Assembly: GCA_028700115.1 (NCBI GenBank)
Contig: JAQVTI010000001.1
Coordinates: forward strand, 107,798-171,797
DNA: 64,000 nucleotides
DNA from: Candidatus Iainarchaeum sp.
GTDB taxonomy: Archaea > Iainarchaeota > Iainarchaeia > Iainarchaeales > CSSED10-239
Direction of reading: 5' to 3'
In this document: positions 23,632 through 62,493 of the stretch, in pieces
Position numbering within the stretch: the first letter of the stretch is position 1
How the letters are laid out: each line of letters opens with the position of its first letter
Program-made: the position numbers and the translations under genes
Notes under the pieces: generated by a model
The model's input: the letters and a program-made list of their open reading frames with translations, nothing else
Databases searched by the model: none
Told to the model about the DNA's origin: nothing

Positions 23632-25761
23632 ATGCTTGACGATAATAATATTAAATGGTTTAAAGATATAAAAGATAGTGAAATTACAGAAATAGGATAT
23701 AAAGCACATAGACTTTCTGAATTACATAAATCACATTTCCCAATACCAAGAGGGTTTGTAATAAACTCAAAATATTATTTTAGTTTTTTTCAACAAAATG
23801 ATCTTAAAGAAAAAATCTTAGAAATTTTAAAAACAATAAATATAGATAATAAAGAGGAAATTTTAAAAAAATCAAAACAAATTAAAGATTTAATATATAA
23901 AACTAAATTTAAAGAAAAATTTATTAATGAAATTGCAAAAATGTATAATAAAATTGGAGAATCACAAATAGGATGGCTAAATAGTAAAGTCGATGAATAT
24001 GTTGCAATTAGAGTATCTATAGTTTCAGAAAAGCACCCCCCTAAAGAACTAGATTTTATTGAAAAATATAGTGGTTTTCTAAATATTAAAGGAATTAACC
24101 AAATTATGGAATGTATTAAAGAAATATGGGCATCTTCTTTTGATCCAGAATTAATTATTGAAAAAAATAAAAAAAATATTTCAGATAATGATTTTGCTAT
24201 CGCAATAATTATTCAAAAAATGATAAATGCACCAATTTCAGGAATTATGAAAACAACAAATGATATTGGAGAAAAAAATACAATTATTGAAGCAATATAT
24301 GGTTTTGGAGGAAGTGGTATAATTTGCCAAATAACTCCAGATAATTATGAAGTAAATAAAAAAAATATAGAAATTATTAGAAAAACACAATCAAAACAAG
24401 AATGGATGTTAAAAAGAATAGTTGGGAAAACAACAAAAGTTATAATTGATGAAAATAAAAAAAATAAACCTAAATTAGAAAATCACGATATTAAAGAGCT
24501 TACATCTATTGGAAAAAAATTAGAACTTTTTTTTGGAAATCCATTATATGTAGATTGGGTAATTGATAAAGCAGATATATATATTCTTAGTGCTGATCCA
24601 ATAGATCCTTCTAAAAAAAAAATTATTAAAAAAAACACAAAAAAAATAGAACATGAAGGATTCCAAGATAAAATGGACTCTTTTAAAAAAGATGTAATTA
24701 TCCAAGGAATTCCTGTATCCCCAGGAATAGCAAACGGAGTTGTAAAAATTATAAAAAATAAATTAGATTTAGAAGAAATTGATTCAGAAACAATTTTAGT
24801 TTCAAAAATGACAAGCCTAGAAATGACTCCATATGTTAAAAAAGCAAAAGCTGTAATTACAGATGCAGGAAGTACTATTTGCCATGCAGCATTAATTTCA
24901 AAAAAATATGATATTCCATGTATAGTTCATACAGAATATGCAACAAGTAAATTAAAAGATGGACAAAATATACAAGTAAATGGAAATAATGGAAAAGTAT
25001 ATAATCTTACAGGAGTAAAAATTATAAAAATAAAAAAAGAAGAAGAAAAAGAAATAAAAATGATTGAAAAAGAAAGCGAGATTCCAAAAACATTTACACA
25101 AATAATTGTAAAAATTGATGAAATTGAAAAATTAAGAGAAATAAATAAAGAAGACATTAATGGAATATATATATGTACACAAAATCTTTTTACAAAAGAA
25201 GAATATATAGAAATAATTAAAGATAAAGAAATATTAATTAAAAAAATTAGATCAAAAATTGATTTAATTAAAAAAATAACAGATAATAAAAAAATATATT
25301 ATGAAATAAATCTCCATCAAAAAGACTTAGTTTATGAAAATATTTCTAATTATGAATTAGAAGCAATTTTTGAAGAAAATAATGAAAATATAAAAATTAT
25401 TTTAGACAATATAAAATCTAAAGAAGAAATTATCCCAATAGAACAGAATACAATAAATAAAATTGGAATAAAAATAGATTCATTAAATACAAATATAATT
25501 TATTCAATATTAGAAAATATAGAAACAATTATAATTAATACAGATAATTTTGATAAATCTAAAAATGTTGAAATTACAAATATTTGTAAAGAAAATAAAA
25601 TTAAAAAAATAATTAATATTAATAAAAATAATAAAAAAAATATAAAAGAATATATTGAATCAAAAATAAATGCAATAATTATAGACTATAATGAAATTAA
25701 TCTAAAAGAAATAGTCTATAAAAAAGAACAAGAGATGTTAAAAGATTTATTATCAATTTAA
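23632..25761 (+). CDS. PEP synthase / pyruvate phosphate dikinase-like protein with ATP-grasp N-domain and phospho-His swivel domain, lacking the PEP/pyruvate-binding TIM-barrel
   Basis: N-terminus HFPIPRGFVIN (PPDK_N-like). Mobile domain with the catalytic His context GSTICHAALISKKYDIPCIV. C-terminal 250 aa are low-complexity K/I/N/E-rich with none of the PEP-utilizers_C motifs. Confidence 0.5.
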   Translation: MLDDNNIKWFKDIKDSEITEIGYKAHRLSELHKSHFPIPRGFVINSKYYFSFFQQNDLKEKILEILKTINIDNKEEILKKSKQIKDLIYKTKFKEKFINEIAKMYNKIGESQIGWLNSKVDEYVAIRVSIVSEKHPPKELDFIEKYSGFLNIKGINQIMECIKEIWASSFDPELIIEKNKKNISDNDFAIAIIIQKMINAPISGIMKTTNDIGEKNTIIEAIYGFGGSGIICQITPDNYEVNKKNIEIIRKTQSKQEWMLKRIVGKTTKVIIDENKKNKPKLENHDIKELTSIGKKLELFFGNPLYVDWVIDKADIYILSADPIDPSKKKIIKKNTKKIEHEGFQDKMDSFKKDVIIQGIPVSPGIANGVVKIIKNKLDLEEIDSETILVSKMTSLEMTPYVKKAKAVITDAGSTICHAALISKKYDIPCIVHTEYATSKLKDGQNIQVNGNNGKVYNLTGVKIIKIKKEEEKEIKMIEKESEIPKTFTQIIVKIDEIEKLREINKEDINGIYICTQNLFTKEEYIEIIKDKEILIKKIRSKIDLIKKITDNKKIYYEINLHQKDLVYENISNYELEAIFEENNENIKIILDNIKSKEEIIPIEQNTINKIGIKIDSLNTNIIYSILENIETIIINTDNFDKSKNVEITNICKENKIKKIININKNNKKNIKEYIESKINAIIIDYNEINLKEIVYKKEQEMLKDLLSI

Positions 25762-32056: not shown

Positions 32057-33217
32057 ATGAAAAATAAAAAAATGGCATTAACAGGTGGAGAAGCAATCTC
32101 ATATGCTTTAAAACAAATTAATCCAGATGTTGTGGCGATGTATCCAATAACTCCACAAACTCCTATTATTGAAAGATATTCAAAATATGTTGCAGATGGA
32201 GAAGTAGATACTGAACTAATTAGAGTTGAATCAGAACACTCTGCACTTTCAGCCACAATCGGAGCTGCTGCTTCAGGGTCTCGTGCAGTTACAGCAACAG
32301 CTTCTCAAGGTTTACTTTATATGTTTGAAGTTTTATCTGTTGCTTCAGGACTAAGACTTCCAATTGTTATGCCTGTTGTAAATAGAGCAATATCTTCTCC
32401 AATAAACATACACTGCGATCATTCAGATTCAATGTCTGCAATTGATCAAGGTTGGATGCAAGTATATTGTCAAAATGCACAAGAAAGTTATGAAATGACT
32501 TTATTTGCAACTAAGCTTGCAGAAAAAGTAAACTTACCTATTATGGTTTGTCAAGATGGATTTATAACTTCCCATAATCTAGAAAACATAGAAGTTTTTA
32601 ATGATAATAAAGTTAAAAAATTTATTGAGGACTACAAACCAGCATATAATTTATTAGATGTAGATAAACCTATATCAATTGGACCTTTAGCCTTAACAGA
32701 TTATTATTTTGAAATAAGAGCACAATTATTTGAAGCTTTTTCAAAAATTAAAAAAGAATTTAAAGAAATTTCAAATGAGTTTAAAGAAACTTTTGACATG
32801 AAAATTAATTTTTTAGAAAAATATAAATCAAATGATGCAGAAATTATTTTTATATGCTTAAGCTCAACTGCTGAAAGTATAAAAGATGTAATTGATACTT
32901 ATAGAGATAATGGTTATAAGGTAGGACTTGTAAGACCAGTTTTATTTAGACCATTTTTTTATGAAGAATATGCAAAAGAATTAGAAAATGCAAAAACAGT
33001 AGTTGTTTTAGATAGATCTGAAGGTCCAGGAAGCCATGCACCTTTGTTTAAAGACATAGTTATTTCTTTAACAAACATAGAAAAAAGACCAGAAGTTTTT
33101 TCTTTTGTTTATGGACTTGGTGGAAGAGAGATTTATCAAAAAGATATATGTAAATTATTAGATACTTTAATCTCTGGTAAGCTTCCAAAAAGTAAATATA
33201 TTGGACTTAGAGAATAA
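32057..33217 (+). CDS. porA: pyruvate:ferredoxin oxidoreductase alpha subunit
   Basis: ALTGGEAISYALKQINPDVVAMYPITPQT N-terminal signature of POR/KOR alpha. Confidence 0.85.
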   Translation: MKNKKMALTGGEAISYALKQINPDVVAMYPITPQTPIIERYSKYVADGEVDTELIRVESEHSALSATIGAAASGSRAVTATASQGLLYMFEVLSVASGLRLPIVMPVVNRAISSPINIHCDHSDSMSAIDQGWMQVYCQNAQESYEMTLFATKLAEKVNLPIMVCQDGFITSHNLENIEVFNDNKVKKFIEDYKPAYNLLDVDKPISIGPLALTDYYFEIRAQLFEAFSKIKKEFKEISNEFKETFDMKINFLEKYKSNDAEIIFICLSSTAESIKDVIDTYRDNGYKVGLVRPVLFRPFFYEEYAKELENAKTVVVLDRSEGPGSHAPLFKDIVISLTNIEKRPEVFSFVYGLGGREIYQKDICKLLDTLISGKLPKSKYIGLRE

Positions 33218-33236
33218 TTTTAAATTTGTGAAAAAT

Positions 33237-35672
33237 ATGAATAATTCAGAACTTGCAATAAAGATTAATGAAAATAAAAAATTAGTTCCAGGACATAGAA
33301 CATGTGCAGGATGCCCTATTGCTGTGATATTAAGAACAGCACTTGCTTCAACTGATAAAAAAATAGTTGTAGCTTCAGCTACTTCTTGTGCAGAAGTAAC
33401 TACTACAATATATCCTTATACATCTTGGAATGTTCCTTGGATGCATTCTGTTTTTGCAAATGCAGCTGCAACTATTTCAGGAATTGAAAGTTCTTATAAA
33501 GCTTTAAAGAAAAAAGGCAAAATAAAAAAAGATATTAGATTTTTAGCTTTTGGTGGAGATGGTGGATGTTACATTCCAAAAACAAAAATATTAACTACAG
33601 AAGGTTTTAAAAATGTAGAAAAAATAACTACAAAAGATTTAATTTGGTCAATAAATCCAAAAAATAAAACTTTAGAAAAATCAAAAATAAAAAAAATGCA
33701 TAAATATAATTATAATGAAAAAATAATTTCTGTAAATCACAATTTTGTACATTTTGATGTATCTTTACAACACAACATTCCAATTTATAATAAATTAAAT
33801 AACAAAATAGAAGCTATTAAAGCACATGAATTATTAAATTATGGTAGAAGTGATAAAATAAATATAATAACAGGTGATTTAAACTGGAAAGGTAAAAATA
33901 AAAAATATTTTGAATTACCAAAAATTAAATACAACAAAAATTCAAATAATAAAAAGGACATACCTAAAATAAATATGAAAATTTGGTTAGAATTTTTTGG
34001 ATATTGGATATCTGAAGGACACCTTTCAAAACATAATAGTAAAAGAAATATATACAACACTTTTATATCTCAAACAAAAAAAGCAACTATTAAAAAAATA
34101 GATAAATGCTTAAAACAAACTAAAATAAATTATTGGTATAATAAAGATAGATTTTGTATAAGTAATCAAAAATTATGGGTATATTTAGAACAATTTGGAA
34201 AAGCAAAAGACAAATATATTCCTCAAGAATTTAAAGAATTATCAAAAGACTATTTACAAATATTATTAAATTCATTAATGGAAGGAGACGGCACAATAAT
34301 TAAAAGACTTAAAAGCACAGCTTATTCTTATAGTACAATTTCAAAAAAATTAAAAGACGATGTAATTGAAATTGCACTTAAATTAGGATATAGAGTGCAT
34401 TTAGATGAAAGAACTAGAAAAAACAGAAAAGAATACAGTATATCTTTTTCAAATTACAAACCAACAAGATTAGCAAACCTAAGAAAAAAACACATCACAA
34501 ATTATAATTATAAAGGAAAAATATATTGTCCAGAATTAGAAAAAAACCACATCATGGTTATTGAAAAAGATGGGCGAATAAGTTTAAATATGAATAGTTT
34601 CGACATTGGACTTCAAAGTCTATCAGGAGCATTAGAAAGAGGACATGATTTTACATATATATGTTATACAAACGAAGGATATATGAATTGTTTATCTACA
34701 GATTCACTAATTATGACTGAATCAGGATTAAAACAAATTACAGAAATTAAAAAAGGAGAAAAAGTTTGGGCTTTTGATCAAAAAACATATCAACCTGTTT
34801 TAAAAAAATGCACAGGTGTATTTGATAATGGTAGAAAAAAAGTATATGAAATTGAAACTATACATCAAAATATAAAAGCAACATCTAATCATCCGTTCTT
34901 AGTATTAAAAAGAAATAAAAATAAAGAAAATGAATTTGTTTGGAAAACAGTTACAGAACTTAAAAAAGATGACGAAATTGTAACTCTTAAAAAGAAATTT
35001 TATAAAAACTTAGATATAAATAAAAATCTAAAAAATGATTATAAAATACAAAATAATCATTATTTTATAATAAGAAAAATAAAAAATATAATTCCTAGAA
35101 AAATAGAACAAACATTAGATTTAAGAGTTGAAGGAGAACACAATTTTATTGCAAATGGAATTGTTGTTCATAACACAGGAAATCAGAGATCTTCAGCAAC
35201 ACCTTATGGAGCATCAACAACTACAACTCCTTCTGGAAAAGTTTCTTTTGGTAAAGAAAAATTCCAAAAAGATCTTGCACAAATTATAATTGCACACAAC
35301 ATACCTTATGTGGCAACTGCAAATCCAGAATTCCAAATTGATATGTATGAAAAAATGAAAAAAGCTTTTGAAACAAAAGGACCTTCATTTATTTTAATTT
35401 TTGCAGCATGCCCTACAAACATGAAAGCAGATCCATCAGAGACATTTACAATTAGTAAAATGGCTACTGAGACAAATTACTTCCCACTTTATGAATATGA
35501 GAATAGAAAATATAAAATTAATTATAAACCTTTTAAAAAAGTTCCAATTGAAGAATTTTTAAAACTACAAACAAAATTTAGAGAAGTTTTAAAAGATAAA
35601 AAAGAAATTAAAATCATACAAGAACACGTAGATGAAAAATGGAATAGTATTCTAAAAAAGGAAGAAAAATAA
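33237..35672 (+). CDS. porB: pyruvate:ferredoxin oxidoreductase beta subunit (TPP-binding) interrupted by two inteins
   Basis: Extein pieces CAGCP, AFGGDGG / SFDIGLQSLSGALERGHDFTYICYTNEGYMN / TGNQRSSATPYGAS match the PorB TPP motif. Excising 343 aa and 162 aa leaves about 306 aa, the normal PorB size. Start taken at the Met after the porA stop. Confidence 0.8.
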   Translation: MNNSELAIKINENKKLVPGHRTCAGCPIAVILRTALASTDKKIVVASATSCAEVTTTIYPYTSWNVPWMHSVFANAAATISGIESSYKALKKKGKIKKDIRFLAFGGDGGCYIPKTKILTTEGFKNVEKITTKDLIWSINPKNKTLEKSKIKKMHKYNYNEKIISVNHNFVHFDVSLQHNIPIYNKLNNKIEAIKAHELLNYGRSDKINIITGDLNWKGKNKKYFELPKIKYNKNSNNKKDIPKINMKIWLEFFGYWISEGHLSKHNSKRNIYNTFISQTKKATIKKIDKCLKQTKINYWYNKDRFCISNQKLWVYLEQFGKAKDKYIPQEFKELSKDYLQILLNSLMEGDGTIIKRLKSTAYSYSTISKKLKDDVIEIALKLGYRVHLDERTRKNRKEYSISFSNYKPTRLANLRKKHITNYNYKGKIYCPELEKNHIMVIEKDGRISLNMNSFDIGLQSLSGALERGHDFTYICYTNEGYMNCLSTDSLIMTESGLKQITEIKKGEKVWAFDQKTYQPVLKKCTGVFDNGRKKVYEIETIHQNIKATSNHPFLVLKRNKNKENEFVWKTVTELKKDDEIVTLKKKFYKNLDINKNLKNDYKIQNNHYFIIRKIKNIIPRKIEQTLDLRVEGEHNFIANGIVVHNTGNQRSSATPYGASTTTTPSGKVSFGKEKFQKDLAQIIIAHNIPYVATANPEFQIDMYEKMKKAFETKGPSFILIFAACPTNMKADPSETFTISKMATETNYFPLYEYENRKYKINYKPFKKVPIEEFLKLQTKFREVLKDKKEIKIIQEHVDEKWNSILKKEEK
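33567..34595 (+). mobile_element. intein 1 in PorB (343 aa) with LAGLIDADG homing endonuclease domain
   Basis: Inserted right after the GGDGG of the TPP motif. Starts CYIPKTKILTTEGF (block A) and ends ..ISLNMN, followed by Ser (+1). Carries two LAGLIDADG motifs (FFGYWISEGH and LLNSLMEGDGTI). The penultimate residue is Met rather than His. Confidence 0.65.
34689..35174 (+). mobile_element. intein 2 in PorB (162 aa mini-intein, no endonuclease)
   Basis: Inserted after YMN of YICYxNEGYMN. Starts CLSTDSLIMTESG and ends GIVVHN, followed by Thr (+1): textbook Hint-domain termini. Confidence 0.8.
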
Positions 35673-40590: not shown

Positions 40591-40766
40591 ACATTTATTT
40601 TAATTTAGGTTAATTTATTTTAATTTATTTTAATTTAGTTTAAAAATATAATTTAATTATTATAAAATTATTATAAAATTATTATAAAATTATTATAAAA
40701 TTATTATAAAATTATTATAAAATTATTATAAAATTATTATAAAATTATTATAAAATTATTATAAAT
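40591..40766. repeat. two adjoining 11-bp tandem repeat arrays (taatttatttt-like about 4 copies, then ttattataaaa x10) in the top6B / asnB-fusion divergent intergenic region
   Basis: Counted copies of ttattataaaa at 40657, 40668 and so on through 40756. The period of 11 is close to one helical turn. Confidence 0.9.
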
Positions 40767-40899
40767 ATTACAAATTATAAATATTATATATATAATATAT
40801 TAAAATATATTTATAAATATATTTATGATAAAGAAAGTAAAATAAATATAATAAAGATAAAACAAATAATTTAAATATATATTGTAAAATAAGATATTT

Positions 40900-43044
40900 A
40901 TGTGTTCGATTGCAGGTAGCTTTAATTTAACTCAAAGCATCAAAAATTGTTATGAAATGAATGTTTTAATGCAAAAAAGAGGTCCTAACCACACATCTTT
41001 TGCACACATCAAAGATAATAAAGTATATATTTATGAATATACAGATAGATTTGAACAAAACAATACAATAAGCCATAATTTACTTGCAATTGTAGGAAAC
41101 ATATCTCAACCTATAAAATATAAAAACACATTAATTACATCTAATTGTGAGATATATAATTGGAAAGAAATTTGTAAAAAAGAAAAAATAAATGCAAGAA
41201 ATGACTCAGAGATGTTAATTAAACTTTTTGAGAAAGAAAAAGTAAATAAGAAAACTTTAGAAAAACTAGATGGAGCATATGCATTTTGTTTCTGGAAAGA
41301 AAACAAAATTTATCTTGCAAGAGATATTTTAGGAGTAAAACCTTTATGGTTTTCATATGAGAACAAAAGTTTTTGTTTTGCATCAGAAAAAAAAGCCTTA
41401 GAAAAAATTGGACGAGAAAAAATAGAATTTTTAGATCCAAGAAAGATTTTAATTTATGATATTAATAAAAATCTAATTAACTATAAAAAAAGAGAATTTA
41501 TAAAAATTAAAGAAAATAAAAATGGTTTAGAAAAAAATAAAAAAATAATTCAAGAAAAATTAGAACAAGCAATTATTAAAAGAATTCCAGAAAAAAAACT
41601 AGCACTTCTTTTTAGTGGAGGAATAGATTCTACAATAATTGCAATGATTCTTAAAAAACACAAAATAGATTTTACAGCATACTTTGCACATCTTAAAGGA
41701 TATAATGAAAATAAAGATTTAGAATATGTTAGAGAGATTGCAAAAAAATATAAAATTAAATTAAAAATTAAAAGTTTAGATTATAAAGACTTAGAAAAAA
41801 ATATTAAACAAGTTGTAAAAACTATTGAATCAACTAACCCTATTAAAATAGGAGTTGGCTTACCTATTTATCTTGCAAGTAAACTTGCTTCAAAAGATAA
41901 AAATAAAGTTATTTTTTCAGGACTTGGTTCTGATGAGATTTTTGCAGGATATAATAGATTTAAAGAATCTAAACATATTCAAAAAGACACACTTAATCTA
42001 CTTTATCAAATACATGAAAATGATTTAAATAGAGACGACTCTCTTACAATGGAAAACAGTATTGAGTTAAGACTTCCTTTTTTAGATTTACCTTTAATTA
42101 AAGAAGTAATTGGAATTGAAGATAAACAAAAAATTAACTCTGAAGAAAATAAAATTATCTTAAGAGAGATTTCAAAAGAATATAGTCTAGATGAAAAATA
42201 TTTTAAAAGAAAAAAAGTTGCTGCACAATATGGTTCTGGGTTTGATAAAGGAATAATTAAACTTTCAAAAGAAAATAAATTTAAATCAAAATCAGAATAT
42301 CTAAAAACTTTTTTAGAAAAGCAGAATCTTAATTTAGGATGTTTATATTCTTCTGGAAAAGACTCTAATCTTTCTTTAAATATTCTAAAAAAACAAAATT
42401 ATAAAATAAAATGTTTAATTTCTATTATTCCAGAAAACAAAGACTCATACATGTATCAAACTCCTGATTTAAAAATTTTAAAAGCACAATCAGAATGTAT
42501 AGAAATACCTTTAGTTTTAGGAAAAACAAAAGGTGAAAAAGAAAAAGAATTAATTGATCTTAAAAAAGTAATTAAAAAAGCAAAAGATAAATACAATCTG
42601 CAAGGAATTGTCTCAGGTGCATTATTTAGTAACTACCAAAGAGAAAGAATTCAAAACATATGTAATGATTTAGGTTTAAGATTGTTTTCACCTCTATGGA
42701 ATATAAACCAAGAAAAAGAAGTTTTGAAATTAATAAAAGAAAAATTTGATTTTAGAATTGTTAAAATTGCTGGATATGGACTAAATAAAGATTGGTTTTT
42801 AAGAAAAATAGATTTAAAAGCTTTAGAAGAACTTAAAAAACTAAATAAGAAATATGGTTTCAATGTAGCAGGAGAAGGTGGAGAATTTGAAACTATTGTT
42901 TTAGACTCACCTGATTTTAAAAAAAAAATAAAAGTTATAGACTACAAGATAAATTTAGAAAATGAATTTACTGGTGAAATTGAAATTAAAAAAATAAAAA
43001 TAGAAGAAAAAAGAAAAACTAATTCTAACAAGTACAACCAATAG
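40900..43044 (+). CDS. asparagine synthetase-like glutamine amidotransferase (Ntn Cys2 + PP-loop) fused to a C-terminal Dph6/MJ0570-type (DUF71, ATP_bind_4) PP-loop domain
   Basis: MCSIAG N-terminal nucleophile; SGGIDST PP-loop at about residue 235. The C-terminal approximately 230 aa carry a second PP-loop SSGKDS and the EGGEFET motif characteristic of diphthine-ammonia ligase-type enzymes. Confidence 0.6.
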   Translation: MCSIAGSFNLTQSIKNCYEMNVLMQKRGPNHTSFAHIKDNKVYIYEYTDRFEQNNTISHNLLAIVGNISQPIKYKNTLITSNCEIYNWKEICKKEKINARNDSEMLIKLFEKEKVNKKTLEKLDGAYAFCFWKENKIYLARDILGVKPLWFSYENKSFCFASEKKALEKIGREKIEFLDPRKILIYDINKNLINYKKREFIKIKENKNGLEKNKKIIQEKLEQAIIKRIPEKKLALLFSGGIDSTIIAMILKKHKIDFTAYFAHLKGYNENKDLEYVREIAKKYKIKLKIKSLDYKDLEKNIKQVVKTIESTNPIKIGVGLPIYLASKLASKDKNKVIFSGLGSDEIFAGYNRFKESKHIQKDTLNLLYQIHENDLNRDDSLTMENSIELRLPFLDLPLIKEVIGIEDKQKINSEENKIILREISKEYSLDEKYFKRKKVAAQYGSGFDKGIIKLSKENKFKSKSEYLKTFLEKQNLNLGCLYSSGKDSNLSLNILKKQNYKIKCLISIIPENKDSYMYQTPDLKILKAQSECIEIPLVLGKTKGEKEKELIDLKKVIKKAKDKYNLQGIVSGALFSNYQRERIQNICNDLGLRLFSPLWNINQEKEVLKLIKEKFDFRIVKIAGYGLNKDWFLRKIDLKALEELKKLNKKYGFNVAGEGGEFETIVLDSPDFKKKIKVIDYKINLENEFTGEIEIKKIKIEEKRKTNSNKYNQ

Positions 43045-44299
43045 CTGCACAACTTTTACCCCAAGCAGTTGCCATTGCTTGACAAAGTGCGACATTACCG
43101 TCTGTAGATGACCTATAAAACATATCACTTGTATCAGTTGTAATCGAAACATTCCATGAAGATAAATTTCTATTCATTTTAGTTCTACCAAACATATAAT
43201 ACATAGTAGATACATTTGAAACATCCCAATTAGATAAATCTTGGTTAAAATTACTTGCATATGCGAACATATTACGCATATTATTAATATTTGAAACATC
43301 CCAATTATTCATATTAGAAACATAAGATACATTTGAACAATTTCTAAAAAAACCTTCTAAACTAGTAACCCCATTTAAATCTAAAATATCAGTTGCAGTT
43401 ATACTAGTTAAATTACTACAACCATAAAATGCATTTGTACTAAATTTTGGGTTAAACCCCCCCCAATGAGATATATTTGTAATTTTAGGATAATCTCCAG
43501 AAGCATTAAAAGACCAACCTTGAATAGTTCCAAACATATTTACATCATAAATTCCTGATGAAGAATAAGTATGTAATTTATCAGAATCATCATAAGAAGT
43601 TATTTCTGAAGTAGTCCCATCTCCCCAATCTACTGTAAAATCATAATTACCTTCAGAAACTAAAGGTAAAGATATTTGATTAGCTTCACTAGATCCAGTA
43701 GAAGTTTTTGTAGTATCCCAAGTTGAAGAAAAATAAGGAATTATACAATCTTGACCACATGAAGAAATTGTTTCATCTCCATTACAAGTTCCATCTCCAC
43801 AATAAGGTGCATTATCACATGAAACAAGACTTGCTCCTAAATAACTTACAGGAATAGAAATATATTTACCATCATTAGTTTTTAATTCTAAAATAAATTC
43901 TTTTGAAGGAATACATATTATATCTAATTGATTACTTCTATTTGGATTAATAACTAAAGGAGTTTCTAAAGTATATTCTGTGTTTATAAAATTTGTATTT
44001 TCTGCGGTTGTAGAAATTAATTTATATGCAACAACATTTAAATCTTTATTAAAATTGTTATTTTCTAAAACAACTTTAGAATAATCCCCAGACATACTTT
44101 CATAAACAGATCTGTATTTTATAAACCCATCTAAATCTGATTTATCATAAGTAACTACAGAAGATTCATCTAGATTAGATGTAGTAAAATCTTTTGAAAA
44201 AGAAACAATTCCTGCAATTAAAACAACTGAAACTAAAACAATTAAAACAGTTGCAATTAATGGAGAAATTGCTTTTTTATAAAAATCATTGCCAAACAT
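43025..44299 (-). CDS. surface protein with archaeal class III (pilin-type) signal peptide, Cys-rich module and C-terminal DUF285/BspA-like repeats
   Basis: Start taken at MFGNDFYKKA-ISPLIATVLIVLVSVVLIAG (archaeal pilin N-domain-like). The longer track ORF begins at 44383. CGDGTCNGDETISSCGQDC module. Repeats NFNQDLSNWDVSNVSTMYYMF / NLSSWNVS..DMF typical of DUF285. Confidence 0.55.
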   Translation of the reverse strand: MFGNDFYKKAISPLIATVLIVLVSVVLIAGIVSFSKDFTTSNLDESSVVTYDKSDLDGFIKYRSVYESMSGDYSKVVLENNNFNKDLNVVAYKLISTTAENTNFINTEYTLETPLVINPNRSNQLDIICIPSKEFILELKTNDGKYISIPVSYLGASLVSCDNAPYCGDGTCNGDETISSCGQDCIIPYFSSTWDTTKTSTGSSEANQISLPLVSEGNYDFTVDWGDGTTSEITSYDDSDKLHTYSSSGIYDVNMFGTIQGWSFNASGDYPKITNISHWGGFNPKFSTNAFYGCSNLTSITATDILDLNGVTSLEGFFRNCSNVSYVSNMNNWDVSNINNMRNMFAYASNFNQDLSNWDVSNVSTMYYMFGRTKMNRNLSSWNVSITTDTSDMFYRSSTDGNVALCQAMATAWGKSCAAIGCTC

Positions 44300-44360
44300 A
44301 TATAAACAATTATAAAAAATATTTAAAAACATATTTATTATTAAATAAAAATTAAAAAAA

Positions 44361-44942
44361 TTAATCAAAAGAAATATCATCAATTTTAACTTCTTGGGTC
44401 TTAACTTTTTTATAACCTTCTGCTTTTAAAGATAAAGATTTTAACATTTTAAAAACAGTTGTATGTTTTACACCTTGTAATATTTTTTCAATAACATCTC
44501 TTACTTCAGAAATATTATCTTGATAACCAATAATAGAAACTGTCTTTCCATAAACAGAAATAAAACAATGAAGCTTATCTTCAATCATTTTTTTAATATG
44601 ACCATCTTTTCCAATAACTCTTCCTCTTATTTGTTCATGTCTATTTCTTGTATTTTTTACAAAATCATCTAAATCAATTATTTCTAAAAGAAAATTATCT
44701 TCTAAAAGATTAAAAGAAACTTCTGGAGAAAACCCTCTTGAAATTGCAGTAAGTATATTTTTTGCGATATGTATTTCATAAAATGATTTTTTAGTTGAAA
44801 TAATTATTTCCCCAGTATGACTATTAATATTTAAATTAGTAGAAGTTTTTTTTTGAATATCTTTTTTAGTTTGACCATTTTCTCCAATAATTACAGCAAG
44901 TCTTTTTTTAGTAACTTTTATTTCATCTTCCATAAAGCTCAA
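44361..44942 (-). CDS. KH-domain RNA-binding protein (Dim2/Pno1-like)
   Basis: KH GxxG motif VIGKDGHIKKMIE. Downstream of the Rio kinase, as in many archaea. Confidence 0.6.
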   Translation of the reverse strand: MSFMEDEIKVTKKRLAVIIGENGQTKKDIQKKTSTNLNINSHTGEIIISTKKSFYEIHIAKNILTAISRGFSPEVSFNLLEDNFLLEIIDLDDFVKNTRNRHEQIRGRVIGKDGHIKKMIEDKLHCFISVYGKTVSIIGYQDNISEVRDVIEKILQGVKHTTVFKMLKSLSLKAEGYKKVKTQEVKIDDISFD

Positions 44943-57538: not shown

Positions 57539-58114
57539 TCATACATTAATATAGTCTTTATGAATATACTCTTTTACAAATAATAAAACATCTTTATTTG
57601 TAAATTGATTTATACTCTTTTTATGATCTTCAAAAAACAGTTCATAACAATATCTAAGATATGAAGGATTAAGAGTTTTTACTTGGTTAAAAAATTTAAC
57701 TTTTAACTCTTTAGAAATATCTAATTCTTTTATTTTTTTATCTAATTTATATTTTAAGATATTTCCTTGTCTATCAGATCTATTAACATAGATTTCTGCT
57801 TCACGTTTTTCTATTTGTGCATATTTTAAAAAATGTTCAACAATTTTTATATATTCTTTTTGAGTTAGTTTTTTCATTAACTCTTTTGTAGTCATGTTTT
57901 TTTTATCTCTTAAAAGAATATTATGCATATGAAAAACAATATCAGAATCTGATAAAAATTTATCTTTTTGTTTAATTAGTTCTCTTAGTTTAGGGTCTAC
58001 TACTTTTTGATTTAGTTTCTTTGTAGACCTATTTCTAGTTATTTTAAAACTTTGTCTTTTTTCCTTAAATGTATAAGGTTTATTTGTTTTTGGATTTATT
58101 TTTCTAAAAGGCAT
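57539..58114 (-). CDS. hypothetical basic protein
   Basis: ORF only. Starts 2 nt after the right direct-repeat copy. Confidence 0.3.
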   Translation of the reverse strand: MPFRKINPKTNKPYTFKEKRQSFKITRNRSTKKLNQKVVDPKLRELIKQKDKFLSDSDIVFHMHNILLRDKKNMTTKELMKKLTQKEYIKIVEHFLKYAQIEKREAEIYVNRSDRQGNILKYKLDKKIKELDISKELKVKFFNQVKTLNPSYLRYCYELFFEDHKKSINQFTNKDVLLFVKEYIHKDYINV

Positions 58115-58216
58115 AAATAATTAACTCTTTTATATTATAACAAATATATAAAAGATAAATAAATTTATAAATAGTAATTTTTATTAAAAAAATAAATTTT
58201 TTTAAAGAAAATTCAT

Positions 58217-58960
58217 TTAATTAATTTTATTTAAAATAAACTTACAAATAAGTTTAAAATCTAATCTATATTTTTTTAAAATATAATGATTTGTTGAATT
58301 ATTATACAATTTTATTTTATAATCATCATTTATTATATTATTTAATTTATTAATAACTATAGATTTATCTTTTATTGGAAAATTATTATCTTTTAGTATA
58401 ACATAGATATCATAAATATCTTTACCTTCATCTCTATTTATAAAAGCTTTAATTTTTTGATAAAATAATTCTTCTAAACTATAAACATTAAAATAAGATA
58501 TATCAAAATCAACAAATCCAGGATAAATTATTTTTTTATTAATATCAGGCATATCTTTATTATTTAATCTAAATTCAAGCATAATTTTATCTTTTTGATT
58601 AATCTCATTAATATACTGAATATCAAATCTAATTGTTTTATTCATGATTCTTGGTTTATTTACAATATAAGATTTCAAATATTTTTTTAAAATTAAATAA
58701 ATATCTTCTTTTAAAATATTTATTTCTTTTTTAGAAAAAATATCAAAATCAATATCTTCAGAAAATCTTTTAAATTTATTAAAATAAACTCTATTTAAAG
58801 AAGTTCCTCCTTTTAATATTATATTATCAAATTTATTCTCTAATAATTTAAATATTTTTGAAATTTCTTTATCTTTTATAATATAATTTGTAGATAATCC
58901 AGTATCTAAACAAATTTTTCTAATAAGTTTTATATCCATTAATTTAATACCACCAATCAA
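58217..58960 (-). CDS. abiEii: AbiEii/AbiGii-family nucleotidyltransferase toxin (type IV TA, DUF1814)
   Basis: IILKGGTSLNRVYFNKFKRFSEDIDFDIF matches the LKGGTAL...RFSEDIDF signature. Confidence 0.65.
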   Translation of the reverse strand: MIGGIKLMDIKLIRKICLDTGLSTNYIIKDKEISKIFKLLENKFDNIILKGGTSLNRVYFNKFKRFSEDIDFDIFSKKEINILKEDIYLILKKYLKSYIVNKPRIMNKTIRFDIQYINEINQKDKIMLEFRLNNKDMPDINKKIIYPGFVDFDISYFNVYSLEELFYQKIKAFINRDEGKDIYDIYVILKDNNFPIKDKSIVINKLNNIINDDYKIKLYNNSTNHYILKKYRLDFKLICKFILNKIN

Positions 58961-59732
58961 TTATATTTTTTTCACCTAAATTATCTTTTAGTTTCCATTT
59001 ATCTATATATTTTGATTTTTTATTATTTATATTTAATAAATAAGTATTAGATTTGTCTTGAGATAATAAATATTTTAAAAAATAATTAGGTATTTTTAAA
59101 TTTGTATTTTTAAGTAAAATATCTAAAATATAGCCAGTAATTTGATTTTGTCTTTTACTAGAGTATTTTTTATAAATTAATAATAATTTATTCCAATTTA
59201 TTTTATTTGAACCTAAATATATAGCTTTAGATAAAATAGAATAACTACCTATATATTTAAATTTATTAAAACAATCAAATATAGTTTTTTCTAAAGAAGA
59301 AATATAAATATTATCTATTCTTATAAAATCATTATAAAAATTAGTATTTATATATTTTAGATTATATTCATATAATTTAATATTTTTAGATTTTTTATTA
59401 GTAGAAATATATATGTTGAAAGGATGGTAATCTATTAAACCATAATAAAATAAAGCAGATGAAAAAGAAATATATCCAGGATATAAATTAGTTGCTATTT
59501 CAAAAAGATCATTTATTGAAAAAATATCTTTTTTAATATAATTATTTTTTTTAAGATTTAATAAATACCCTTTATCTTTTAATTGTTTTAATAAAAAATT
59601 AATCTTATAATTAGAATAATCTTTAAAAGCAGATTTTAAATCATTGTTTTTTAATATATTATTCTTTTTTTTAGAATCTATATAGTTATACAAATAATTT
59701 TCATTATTTGTTAATTGGTTATTTTTTTGCAT
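58944..59732 (-). CDS. abiEi: AbiEi-family antitoxin / transcriptional regulator
   Basis: YPGYISFSSALFYYGLIDYHP matches the AbiEi_4 motif YxSxxSALxxHGL. Overlaps the downstream toxin gene by 17 nt. Confidence 0.6.
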   Translation of the reverse strand: MQKNNQLTNNENYLYNYIDSKKKNNILKNNDLKSAFKDYSNYKINFLLKQLKDKGYLLNLKKNNYIKKDIFSINDLFEIATNLYPGYISFSSALFYYGLIDYHPFNIYISTNKKSKNIKLYEYNLKYINTNFYNDFIRIDNIYISSLEKTIFDCFNKFKYIGSYSILSKAIYLGSNKINWNKLLLIYKKYSSKRQNQITGYILDILLKNTNLKIPNYFLKYLLSQDKSNTYLLNINNKKSKYIDKWKLKDNLGEKNIIDWWY

Positions 59733-59937
59733 ATAACATAATTATATTACATAACCTTTAAAAAATTAACCAAAAAATATTTATTTAAAATATATTAAAA
59801 ATAAATAAAATTTTAAGAAAAAGAATAAGTTTTAGATTTTTAAAATTTTTTTAAAAATAAAAAAAAGAAAAGAAAGAAAAGGAAATAAATCCTTTATCTT
59901 TAACGGTTTAGATTTAATCTATTTTATTTTCAAACAT

Positions 59938-62493
59938 TTACATGTTTTCAATAACGTTGATTAATTCTTTAGCAGCCATTGCAGTGTCTTCAGCTGTCAT
60001 TCCAGCAACAACAATATTACCTTCAGCGTTTTGTCCTAATACATAGTCTCCAGAAGCTGTTAACATAGTATCTAATCCTATATTTTGAGCTAATGTGTTA
60101 ACTAAGTGACCACCAACAATGATTTTGTTTCCTGCTGGGTTTTCGTTATCAAGGTATACTAATTTGTTTGTTGCAACATTCCATGTCATTGGAACAATAG
60201 CATCAGTTGCAGCTCCACCAGATAAAGCAACAGCATCTAATGATACAGATACTCCGTCTTCTGTTTGTTGTTCTCCTTCAGCTGTTAAAGTGAATGTTGA
60301 ACCGTTAATTGATGTTGAAGTACTAGCTCCTCCACCAACGAAGATTTGTCCATATAATTTAGTATCAGGAACAATTGCAGTAAACATACCTCCGTCTACT
60401 TCAGCATATGTACCAAATTCTGTATATCCCCAAGTTAAATCATCAGAATCTTCTTGATTTAGTGTGTAAGTTACAGCATCACCAGTTGTGAAAGCTGAAT
60501 TTCCATTTACAACAAGAACTTGATCAACAACAGCTAAATAAGATGAATCATCTGTATCTACTAAATTTCCAGTTCCAGCATCAATATGAGCTACTACTGA
60601 ATCTTGACCATCATCAACAACAAATTCAAACATAGATTTCATATCAGTACCGTCTGTTAAAACACCTGTAGCAGTTTTACCAACATATGTACCATCACTA
60701 GTTGCAGCAACATCTATTTGTGTATATATATTTTTAATAGTCCAATCTTGAGTAGGACTATCAATAGTACCTTCAATAGATCCTGCAGCACCTTCTTTAA
60801 GACCTAATGCAAATTGAGTAATATCATTTGTTCCAGTTGCACCATCTTCGTTAATATATAAACCATAAGCTAATTTTTCAGATTCATTATTATATAATGG
60901 GATTGTTAAATCTGTAAATGCAGCATCTGTGTAAACAAATTTAGAATTATCTGTATTTGTTGTTTCCCAAGTCCAAACATTAGAAGTTTTTGTTAAGTAA
61001 TCTCCATCATCATCTTCTAATTGAACTGTGAAATAACCAATATCTAAAGCATCATTTGCAGCATTAGGAATTCCACCAACATTGGAATCTTCATTACCAT
61101 ATATAAAACTATCATAAGAACCTACATCTGTAGTAGTATTAAAATCCTCATCAGCTGTATGGAATTCAATGTATAATTTCTTATCATCTAATGTTTGCAT
61201 AGTTGTATAGTTTTCACCATCTCCGTAAGTTCCATCTTCTTCTTCATAAAAGAATACTTTGTGATCGTCGTCAGTAGCATCTATATAAGAAATATATCCA
61301 TCTTCAACAATTACTTCTTTTGATGATTCATTAGTTAAACCTAAAAAGTCAATAGAACCTAAATCAAATGGTAAAACAATAGAGTCATCTACTTTTAAAG
61401 CATCTTCATCTTCCCATTGAACATCTTGATCTTCATTAGTAAATACTATTTTTGTAATAGGATCAGAACCTGTAAAACTAACTTTCCATAATTTATCATC
61501 TATATTTGGGAAATCTTCAATAATTTGTCCACTTTCAAGCTCTATACTTGTACTTGTACCTGAAACAACAGTTACTTTTTTATCATAAACTGTATCTATT
61601 TCTACATTTGATTCTAAATATTCGTTGAATACTGTTTCATAATCTGTAAAAACTTCAGAAGCTAAAATTGCACCATTTTGAGAAATACTTAATTCAACAG
61701 AATAATTATTACTAGATTCTAAAATATCTTCAACAGTGATTGTATATCCGTCAACTTCAAAAGAAGCACCTTCTTCATAAGGAGCTGTATTTTTATTTTG
61801 AACTAAAGTTACAATTCCATTAGAATAGTCTTCAAGAGTATATTCATTACCCATTAAATTAAATTTGAAATCAGGACTACCTTCATCATTAGCACCATTA
61901 TTAATTCCAGGATTAAATTCAAGAGTATATGAAATATCCCCTCTATCAAATGATGCTGTTAAATCAGCTACATCTTTATCTGAATCAAAAGCAACTGTAG
62001 GAGTAATAGTAATACTTTCTTGTACATTTATTTCATCAGTATCAAAAATACTATCATCAACATCTACGTCATAATCTCCTAAAACAGAATAATCTCTGTC
62101 ATCAAGAGTTTCTGTAACACTAGTAGATCCTAATTCCCAATCATCTGTTAACAAACCGTCTCCAGAAATTGTAGATGTTGATTCAGCACCAGCTGTAACA
62201 GTTACACTTTCTAATGCAGCTCCAGCGATTGCGTCACCTGATGTGTAAGCTTTCTTTCCAATAGCAGCAGCTATGTTTCCAGCCCATACAACATCAACTG
62301 GTTGAGCCATAGATCCAACGATTACATTGTAAGCTGGTCCTGTAGCACCAAATAATTGATCTTTTGTTAAGTTGTCTATTCCAGTGTATGTGTCATCTGC
62401 CATGTTAGCAGCAGCAACAGCACCTGCAAATAAAGCAGAAACTGCAAAAACACCTGCACCAGCAACTATTTTCTTCATATTTATATTCTTCAT
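59938..62493 (-). CDS. putative S-layer / major cell-surface protein
   Basis: Sec signal MKKIVAGAGVFAVSALFAGAVAAA. 851 aa, Thr/Asp/Gly/Val-rich with almost no Lys, unlike the K/N/I-rich rest of the window. Local GC clearly higher. Long AT-rich promoter region. Confidence 0.5.
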   Translation of the reverse strand: MKNINMKKIVAGAGVFAVSALFAGAVAAANMADDTYTGIDNLTKDQLFGATGPAYNVIVGSMAQPVDVVWAGNIAAAIGKKAYTSGDAIAGAALESVTVTAGAESTSTISGDGLLTDDWELGSTSVTETLDDRDYSVLGDYDVDVDDSIFDTDEINVQESITITPTVAFDSDKDVADLTASFDRGDISYTLEFNPGINNGANDEGSPDFKFNLMGNEYTLEDYSNGIVTLVQNKNTAPYEEGASFEVDGYTITVEDILESSNNYSVELSISQNGAILASEVFTDYETVFNEYLESNVEIDTVYDKKVTVVSGTSTSIELESGQIIEDFPNIDDKLWKVSFTGSDPITKIVFTNEDQDVQWEDEDALKVDDSIVLPFDLGSIDFLGLTNESSKEVIVEDGYISYIDATDDDHKVFFYEEEDGTYGDGENYTTMQTLDDKKLYIEFHTADEDFNTTTDVGSYDSFIYGNEDSNVGGIPNAANDALDIGYFTVQLEDDDGDYLTKTSNVWTWETTNTDNSKFVYTDAAFTDLTIPLYNNESEKLAYGLYINEDGATGTNDITQFALGLKEGAAGSIEGTIDSPTQDWTIKNIYTQIDVAATSDGTYVGKTATGVLTDGTDMKSMFEFVVDDGQDSVVAHIDAGTGNLVDTDDSSYLAVVDQVLVVNGNSAFTTGDAVTYTLNQEDSDDLTWGYTEFGTYAEVDGGMFTAIVPDTKLYGQIFVGGGASTSTSINGSTFTLTAEGEQQTEDGVSVSLDAVALSGGAATDAIVPMTWNVATNKLVYLDNENPAGNKIIVGGHLVNTLAQNIGLDTMLTASGDYVLGQNAEGNIVVAGMTAEDTAMAAKELINVIENM

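Follow-up and report, generated by a model that had tools for sequence, protein, structure and literature searches.

The window considered in this study is a stretch of 64,000 nucleotides from the archaeon Candidatus Iainarchaeum sp. (contig JAQVTI010000001.1, positions 107,798 to 171,797). It contains one complete gene (40900-43044, plus strand), identified from the list of open reading frames (ORFs), Pfam and NCBIfam, in which three domains are joined: a class II glutamine amidotransferase domain, a PP-loop domain like that of asparagine synthetase B (AsnB), and Dph6, the diphthine--ammonia ligase of diphthamide synthesis. The fusion is real, rigid and ancient. The reading that I think best, with a confidence that stays a little below even, is that the protein forms a glutamine-dependent diphthamide synthetase, whose AsnB-derived module would make ammonia and channel it to Dph6. 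Neither the architecture nor the ammonia hypothesis is new; both were published in 2012, and such proteins are already annotated. What is new here is the case, made residue by residue, that the AsnB-like module is non-canonical, and the finding that it forms an archaeal family of its own, with fused and free members.

The ORF runs from ATG to stop over 714 codons plus the stop, with no break in frame on reading the DNA. It lies in DNA of about 22% GC, within a window whose GC content ranges from about 15 to 32%, and since stop codons are frequent in AT-rich DNA, an ORF of 714 amino acids is far beyond chance. The features that follow are all on the plus strand. The class II, or N-terminal nucleophile (Ntn), glutamine amidotransferase domain (GAT-II) takes up residues 1 to about 200 (40900-41499) and is recognized by its matches to GATase_6 and GATase_7: Pfam places GATase_7 at residues 69-168, and GATase_7 together with GATase_6 within 53-168. 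The codon of its nucleophile, Cys2 (Cys1 in the numbering of Escherichia coli), is at 40903-40905. The AsnB-type, or synthetase-like, PP-loop domain occupies residues ~205-475 (41512-42324), as judged from PF00733 (Asn_synthase, matched from residue 218), from alignment to the AsnB structure 1CT9 and from Foldseek; it carries the first PP-loop, SGGIDS, at residues 239-244 (41614-41631) and terminates in a conserved junction helix, residues ~448-475. The Dph6 domain (PF01902/DUF71) extends over residues 476-704 (42325-43011) and is supported by PF01902, TIGR03679, phmmer and Foldseek. Within it are the second PP-loop, SSGKDS, at residues 484-489 (42349-42366), and the motif EGGEFE at residues 659-664 (42874-42891), corresponding to the Dph6-subfamily signature EGG(E/D)xE188. 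The tail of the protein, residues 705-714, is predicted to be disordered.

An earlier note, made from the letters of this DNA, had proposed a covalent fusion of an Ntn amidotransferase, an AsnB-type PP-loop domain and a Dph6/MJ0570-type domain, and Pfam and NCBIfam show that the fusion is genuine. The motifs it quoted are all present, including MCSIAG at residue 1 in addition to SGGIDS, SSGKDS and EGGEFE at the positions given above. Its assignment of the C-terminal region to PF01902/MJ0570-like proteins also stands: Pfam Diphthami_syn_2 (PF01902) matches residues 481-700 with an E-value of 5e-61 and 206.4 bits, over profile positions 5-218 of 219, and the NCBIfam equivalog TIGR03679 (Dph6_archaeal) scores 246.7 bits, above its cut-off of 197.3. 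A phmmer search against solved structures matches residues 479-702 to PH1257 (2d13, 5e-57) and PF0828 (3rjz, 6e-51). For the AsnB-like half, residues 38-438 match E. coli AsnB (1ct9) and align to 1CT9 residues 40-449. TIGR01536 (asn_synth_AEB) is marginally above its cut-off (274.3 versus 267.1 bits), and the AsnB equivalog NF006949/PRK09431 is below (222.2 bits versus a cut-off of 499), with positions 1-485 of its 554 matched.

An AlphaFold2 model of the fusion protein, built from 68 sequences, has a mean predicted local distance difference test score of 91.8 and a predicted template modelling (TM) score of 0.87 over the three domains, values that speak for a fixed placement of the domains relative to one another. 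In Foldseek, the N-terminal two-thirds superpose on AsnB and human asparagine synthetase (ASNS; 1ct9, 6gq3) with a TM score of 0.79, and the C-terminal third on PF0828 and PH1257 (3rk1, 2d13) with TM scores of 0.95-0.97 and root-mean-square deviations of 1.0-1.6 Å. Among the solved structures it found no single chain that spans both the AsnB-like and the Dph6 parts.

Could two neighbouring genes have been joined by an artefact of assembly, frameshift or gene calling? There is practically no chance of it. A protein identical to the fusion is present in NCBI (P0001, "diphthine--ammonia ligase [Candidatus ainarchaeum sp.]"), and the best 120 homologues are all full-length fusions, 670-735 amino acids in length and 45-62% identical, from independent assemblies of Woesearchaeota, Nanoarchaeota and Diapherotrites/Iainarchaeota. 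Species-representative genomes provided at least 365 loci with relatives, and the architecture was read in the best 80. In 75 of these both halves lie in one frame; of the rest, two are cut by contig ends, one has dph6 downstream in another frame, and two are free-standing. When a fusion from Methanosarcinaceae is used as the query, the same architecture appears in Methanolobus, Methanomethylovorans and Methanosalsum natronophilum, the Methanolobus fusions being found in complete genomes of cultured species. The same query then returns DPANN fusions that are themselves among the hits of the window protein (P0098, P0094, P0085, P0029 and others); they are 48-52% identical to the query, and the alignments cover 99-100% of it. 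The junction between the halves is poor in gaps and conserved across the 120 fusions, where AAQYGS varies little if at all and N476 is present in 119. A few odd relatives (a change of frame at L046, the proteins P0121 and P0122, and the chimera P0155) are what can be said for an artefact, and the idea is refuted by the single clean ORF, the conserved residues at the junction, which is in frame in 75 of 80 genomes, and the complete genomes of cultured Methanolobus. Thus the caveat of the earlier note, that two genes might have been merged by a frameshift, is excluded by the identical NCBI protein and the in-frame loci, and the fusion that it suggested looking for in the databases does occur there: the protein clusters that contain it, which come from DPANN archaea and from cultured Methanosarcinaceae, number in the hundreds.

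The odd relatives merit a brief description. At L046 (1464-3056) the ORF for the AsnB-like part stops at 2934, and from about 2959 to the end of the contig a dph6-like segment is read in another frame; the locus holds either one fusion broken by a frameshift or two truly separate genes. P0121 and P0122 appear to be fusions that have been truncated. P0155 (1005 amino acids) has an SMC_N/AAA_23 head upstream of an AsnB-like/Dph6 protein without the N-terminal Cys, and it is probably a chimera of gene calling or assembly. A check of unusually long relatives for extra informative domains found none.

Fusions of AsnB to DUF71 were reported in Methanohalophilus mahii, Methanosalsum zhilinae and "Ca. 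Nanosalinarum" by de Crécy-Lagard et al. (2012, Biol Direct 7:32, PMC3541065), who described the AsnB domain as N-terminal to DUF71 and divided it into GAT-II and an Asn_Synthase PP-loop subdomain. They proposed the same idea for the fusion, a supply of ammonia from glutamine (PMC3541065). The reviewer L. Aravind regarded as unsettled both which PP-loop uses the ammonia and what role the AsnB-like PP-loop plays (PMC3541065). A survey of archaeal dph genes from 2018 does not mention the fusion, and a search of the available literature library for work after 2012 characterizing the fusion or the nitrogen source of archaeal Dph6 found none. The NCBI pipeline already names the fusion proteins diphthine--ammonia ligase. 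The statement in the earlier note that the architecture had not been described therefore fails, and with architecture and hypothesis both 14 years old, the present work is a refinement of what was known rather than a discovery.

I will refer to residues of the Dph6 half by the numbering of PF0828, as obtained from an alignment of the 120 fusions with PF0828 and PH1257. In the PP-loop, S-(S/G)-G-K-D-S, the residues G14, K15 and D16 are present in all 120 fusions, S12 in 119 and the last Ser in 116; position 13 is Ser instead of Gly in 74. E183, G184, G185, E186 and E188 of the motif EGGExE188 are found without exception. This motif, in the form EGG(E/D)xE188, is the mark of Dph6, as opposed to the ENGE(F/Y)H of the DUF71-B12 subfamily of B12 salvage (PMC3541065). 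Residues predicted to lie at the interface with EF-2 are equally constant (S44, E78, Y103, Q104, E183 and E186 in 120 of 120), with position 45 either Tyr (100 fusions) or Phe (20). The Dph6 residues are likewise kept in all 74 proteins from Methanosarcinaceae. In the window protein, Gln replaces H48 of PF0828. These motifs point to a Dph6 domain that is complete and apparently a competent diphthine--ammonia ligase (EC 6.3.1.14), almost certainly the site at which diphthine would be adenylated.

The AsnB-like half was compared, in the numbering of E. coli AsnB, over the 120 fusions, up to 86 loci and the 74 Methanosarcinaceae proteins. Key residues of the glutaminase are conserved: Cys1 is present in 118 of the 120 fusions, R30, N74 and D98 in 119 or 120, and E76 in 119. 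The S, G, D and S of the PP-loop SGGxDS are invariant in the fusions, and S234 and D238 are kept at all 86 loci. The residues for binding ATP and for adenylation (S234, D238, D/E351, E352, Y357, R387, K429 and K449) vary little or not at all, and D384 is kept in the DPANN fusions, with Asn at this position in Methanosarcinaceae. Positions lining the tunnel stay hydrophobic across the 120 fusions. The position of the tunnel gate, R142 in the human enzyme and Ile in E. coli asparagine synthetase B, is Lys or Arg in every one of them, and the partners of the gate, D389 and E398 (D405 and E414 in the human enzyme), are kept as Asp in 120 and as Glu in 119. By these counts the module is under strong selection, and both ATP binding and hydrolysis of an amide donor are very probable for it.

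One sub-lineage, that of the ANME-3 archaeon "Ca. Methanovorans" (L079, 5001-7226; P0294 and close relatives), has a degraded glutaminase site, with VADCRIYN in place of VANCEIYN, that is, the changes N74D and E76R. Most other Methanosarcinaceae fusions keep the canonical glutaminase residues.

Two positions set this half apart from asparagine synthetases. The first is Leu61 of the window protein (41080-41082), which stands at the position of Arg49 in E. coli AsnB (Arg-48 in the human enzyme). Leu replaces Arg49 in 120 of 120 fusions, at 83 of 83 loci and in 70 of 74 Methanosarcinaceae proteins, and thus in at least 273 of about 277 overall. Human Arg-48 is the only site of an ASNS disease mutation in the N-terminal domain that is placed to contact glutamine directly (PMC6748925). 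The second is Leu342 (41923-41925), at the position of E. coli Glu348 and human Glu-364. Position 348 is Leu in 118 of the 120 fusions and is never Glu in about 280 members of the family. At the 86 loci it is Leu in 76, Ser in five, Ile in two, and Thr and Met in one each, and in the 74 Methanosarcinaceae proteins it is Ser in 70, Thr in two and Ala in two; V, I, T, N, M, G, F and A are the rarer residues across the family. In the human enzyme Glu-364 is found where the ammonia tunnel meets the synthetase site, and neither the E364A nor the E364Q mutant shows activity, even when NH4Cl is supplied (PMC6748925).

Other changes accompany these. M382E, A386Y, A388D and N389D are fixed in the pocket of the fusions, and a set of pocket residues specific to the family (R353, E373, Y377, D379 and D380) is invariant or nearly so in fused and free forms. 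The module reaches only to about residue 485 of the 554 in AsnB, with Dph6 beginning at residue 476 of the fusion, so that some 70 C-terminal residues of AsnB (about 485-553) are absent. The description of residues 1-480 in the earlier note as a canonical asparagine synthetase B therefore does not hold, in view of Arg49 replaced by Leu, the lack of Glu348, the score against PRK09431 and the missing C-terminus. Because Leu stands in for Arg49 and Glu348 is never present, the AsnB-like half is not a canonical asparagine synthetase (EC 6.3.5.4). A position 348 that varies and is never Glu, next to an invariant ATP site, is the pattern expected of a domain that still binds ATP but has ceased to activate aspartate. 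The loss of Glu348 alone is no proof that the module lacks a metabolic role.

The module also exists by itself. A HMMER scan with residues 1-475 gave 565 representative clusters at an E-value of 1e-30 or better, and the best 150 were inspected. They comprise fusions and about 25 free-standing proteins (P0126, P0137, P0145, P0146, P0152, P0177, P0194 and others; loci L001-L005, L056 and L078), which are some 440-510 amino acids long, carry the same L49/L348 signature and are annotated as "asparagine synthetase B". The C-terminus of the free-standing homologues falls exactly at the helix which, in the fusions, makes the junction. A few sequences that are apparently free are truncated fusions. 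Where flanks were read, the free genes sit amid unrelated archaeal housekeeping genes, and a search at the free loci for split pairs of asnB-like and dph6 genes found only L046, in the other frame and at a contig end. In a rough neighbour-joining tree, free clades with Q348 are basal, including a protein of Methanococcus aeolicus (WP_011972929.1) that keeps Arg49 and has Gln348, and fused and free forms interleave within the L49/L348 clade. The interleaving suggests repeated fusion or fission, a link of the Rosetta-stone type.

The M. aeolicus homologue (L086/L087, 8001-9593, in CP000743) is situated between genes for a CofE-like F420 ligase, a lysA-like decarboxylase and dapF. Genes of the UPF0147 and MscS families lie within 8 kb of it, and both families recur beside the DPANN genes, which suggests an old, vertically inherited archaeal gene and hints at a synteny shared since ancient times. 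A literature search gave no support to the idea that the Methanococcus homologue is linked to amidation of the archaellin glycan.

How might such a protein work? The Dph6 domain would adenylate the carboxylate of diphthine on aEF-2 and then amidate it. The N-terminal glutaminase, through Cys1, would free ammonia from an amide donor, most likely glutamine, and the ammonia would enter the conserved tunnel of AsnB type. The AsnB-derived PP-loop domain, no longer making asparagine, may have been retained to bind ATP and serve as a conduit or coupling module, and would pass the ammonia on to the site of the tightly fused Dph6. Diphthamide formation could in this way be made independent of free ammonium in small and largely auxotrophic archaea. 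I favour channelling because the fusion is persistent and rigid, because glutaminase, tunnel and gate have all been kept, because the Glu has been lost while the ATP site was retained, and because yeast Dph6 offers a parallel. Glutamine-dependent diphthamide synthesis thus seems a reasonable reading of the fusion, and the published idea would be corrected in one respect, in that asparagine is probably not a further product of the AsnB-like domain.

Several observations weigh against this reading. Arg49, the residue in direct contact with glutamine, is missing, so the use of glutamine is not assured. The strict conservation of the adenylation site and of the pocket residues R353, E373, Y377, D379 and D380 suits an active second amidation site as well as or better than it suits a conduit. 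In the ANME-3 sub-lineage with N74D and E76R, the conserved Q-P motif is also altered, and both Cys1 and the fusion are kept. The free genes whose flanks were read (L002, L003, L004/L005, L056 and L078) do not have dph6 beside them, so covalent attachment to Dph6 is not needed for the module to function. Finally, no dph2, dph5 or EF-2 gene was found among the window ORFs scanned against Pfam, nor among the neighbours at 86 loci whose ORFs were clustered.

A different explanation, which I consider possible and rather doubtful, is that one chain carries two independent amidations: the AsnB-like module, fused or free, would be a glutamine-dependent amidotransferase for a carboxylate acceptor other than aspartate, and Dph6 would separately use free ammonia. 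The two would be fused through co-regulation, through a shared client (aEF-2 or another translation component) or through a shared ammonia. The possibility was raised in 2012 by Aravind (PMC3541065). It would account for adenylation residues that are invariant or nearly so, for an acceptor pocket that is remodelled yet conserved in fused and free forms, and for free-standing members that are not adjacent to dph6; and the next best structural matches by Foldseek are enzymes of the AsnB fold with altered acceptors. The gene neighbourhoods, however, provide no candidate for the acceptor, and the variation of position 348 by lineage, along with the change of D384 to Asn in Methanosarcinaceae, would be odd if there were a single conserved acceptor. 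Nor do independent amidations give a reason for the persistence of the fusion or for the interleaving of fused and free forms.

The wording of 2012 suggests a third explanation, a bifunctional asparagine synthetase and diphthamide synthetase, with a glutaminase that perhaps serves both sites. I judge it improbable. It is true that TIGR01536 is just above its cut-off, that D/E351, D384, R387 and K449, which bind aspartyl-AMP in models of ASNS, are retained, and that papers on DPANN archaea annotate the gene as AsnB. Furthermore, the basal M. aeolicus homologue, with R49 and Q348, lies amid genes of the aspartate family (lysA and dapF). Parasites with reduced genomes sometimes keep an asparagine synthetase. 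On the other hand, Glu348 is never present, and the human enzyme is inactive without it even when given NH4Cl; Arg49 is Leu almost everywhere; the score against PRK09431 is 222 versus 499; the module lacks about 70 residues of the AsnB C-terminus; and M382E, A386Y, A388D and N389D are fixed.

Returning to the glutamine-dependent diphthamide synthetase, an extension of it may be mentioned, on which I would put no great weight since it seems to me rather unlikely. It is that the whole L49/L348 clade, fused or free, is a dedicated and uncharacterized glutamine-amidotransferase partner of Dph6 and not an asparagine synthetase. If so, glutamine-dependent diphthamide formation would occur in DPANN archaea and in some Methanosarcinaceae, and the lone "AsnB" of auxotrophic DPANN genomes would be a mis-annotation. 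On the same reading, the remodelled pocket (L342, R353, E373, Y377, D379 and D380) and Dph6 could even make a composite site around the trimethylammonium-bearing side chain of diphthine.

For archaea, the nitrogen source used in the final step of diphthamide synthesis is not known to have been established, and for eukaryotes it has only been inferred. The fused enzyme allows a direct test of it: there is a single polypeptide, the mutational predictions are clear, and the gene is present in cultured Methanolobus. There are also consequences for annotation. Cultured nanohaloarchaea have been described with "AsnB" among the few genes of amino-acid biosynthesis in otherwise auxotrophic genomes, with Dph5 listed and Dph6 never mentioned, a pattern that agrees with the channelling reading, and all of the nanohaloarchaeal loci retrieved here are fused. 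In Woesearchaeota, asparagine synthase has been described as expressed in situ. From the analysis of residues, the nanohaloarchaeal "AsnB", and possibly the woesearchaeotal asnB, should not count as evidence of asparagine synthesis, and wherever the reported AsnB is the fused form, Dph6 lies hidden inside it. All told, the observation in the earlier note is confirmed, and its interpretation is supported in part.

Among the scanned ORFs of the window, the neighbours of the gene are housekeeping genes. They encode the A and B subunits of topoisomerase VI, divergent and upstream, as well as a KH protein, a RIO kinase, aIF-1A, MCM, RPA, acetate kinase and subunits of pyruvate:ferredoxin oxidoreductase (PFOR). 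A search by tblastn with both halves across the 64-kb window found no second dph6 or asnB. On the other side is a convergent gene (43025-44383, minus strand), which overlaps the 3' end of the fusion gene by 20 nucleotides and encodes 452 amino acids with an N-terminal hydrophobic segment and DUF285 ("Mycoplasma") repeats. Over the 86 loci, the only recurrent neighbours are genes for cytidylyltransferase-like proteins (17), MscS-like channels (13), prefoldin-like proteins (nine) and UPF0147 (eight). The cytidylyltransferase-like neighbour (for example L029, 7112-7528), with about 138 amino acids and the motif FDxxHxGH, resembles RibL/FAD-synthetase or TagD by eye, and no link of it to diphthamide is evident.

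The divergent intergenic region of 317 nucleotides between topoisomerase VI-B and the fusion gene consists almost entirely of tandem repeats. One array (40655-40817) has an 11-nucleotide unit, AATTATTATAA, in about 15 copies with 85% match, and a second (40593-40658) is made of the 5/10-nucleotide unit ATTTA(GTTTA). The arrays may be the result of AT-rich slippage or may be a promoter or regulatory array.

Three other features of the window were seen in passing. An ORF of 823 amino acids with a TPP_enzyme_C domain (33201-35672, plus strand) is interrupted by an intein (Intein_splicing at residues 504-658, LAGLIDADG_3 at 355-412), and a POR_N/PFOR_II subunit gene (32057-33217, plus strand) is directly before it; it looks like an intein-containing β-type subunit of PFOR. 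An ORF of 709 amino acids (23632-25761, plus strand) matches PPDK_N and the mobile domain of PEP-utilizers, with no match at the threshold used to the C-terminal TIM barrel of PEP-utilizers, and may be an atypical phosphoenolpyruvate synthase or a protein like pyruvate, phosphate dikinase. The GC content falls to 14.7% at 58001-60000, as compared to 17-32% elsewhere, and the AT-rich frames still encode recognizable archaeal housekeeping proteins.

It remains to set the window protein beside known systems. Its domain order, GAT-II, Asn_synthase PP-loop and DUF71/Dph6, is the same as that of the AsnB-DUF71 fusions of 2012. Unlike those examples it comes from a very AT-rich DPANN genome of the Iainarchaeota type, and its active-site residues, which were unexamined in the 2012 paper (PMC3541065), are analysed here. 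The Methanosarcinaceae fusions (Methanolobus, Methanomethylovorans and Methanosalsum natronophilum) have about 50% identity with the DPANN members, and the two branches differ in having S348 and N384 versus L348 and D384. Free-standing archaeal AsnB-like proteins, of the L49/L348 clade in Woesearchaeota (for example MBI2147721.1) and of the Q348 clade (for example WP_011972929.1), are 36-44% identical to residues 1-475 of the window protein and share the motifs HxLH, SG-L-GS and AAQYGS, but they lack the Dph6 domain, and dph6 is not among the neighbours of their genes.

The stand-alone archaeal Dph6 proteins, PF0828 (3RJZ/3RK0/3RK1) and PH1257 (2D13), are about 40% identical over the whole domain and have its motifs and EF-2-contact residues in common. 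They are single-domain enzymes of about 220 amino acids that are presumed to act on free ammonia, whereas here Dph6 is the C-terminal third of a protein of 714. In yeast, Dph6 (YLR143W) consists of DUF71 and two RidA/YjgF domains; its PP-loop domain needs the appended domains in order to function, and these were proposed by the authors to generate ammonia (PMC3585130). The likeness to the window protein is that Dph6 is covalently joined to a proposed ammonia-generating module. The yeast module differs in that it is unrelated (it has the fold of an imine deaminase), is C-terminal rather than N-terminal, and has no second PP-loop or tunnel.

With E. coli AsnB (1CT9) and human ASNS (6GQ3), the window protein shares the two-domain fold, Cys1, N74, E76, D98, SGGxDS, K429, K449, R387 and the network of tunnel and gate. 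It differs from them by Leu at position 49, Leu at position 348 (other non-acidic residues in relatives) and a shorter C-terminus. β-Lactam synthetase, carbapenam synthetase and TsnB9 have the AsnB fold and PP-loop as well, and act on acceptors other than aspartate. The first two have lost the glutaminase nucleophile and have Tyr at the position of Glu348. Unlike these, the family of the window protein has kept both Cys1 and the tunnel.

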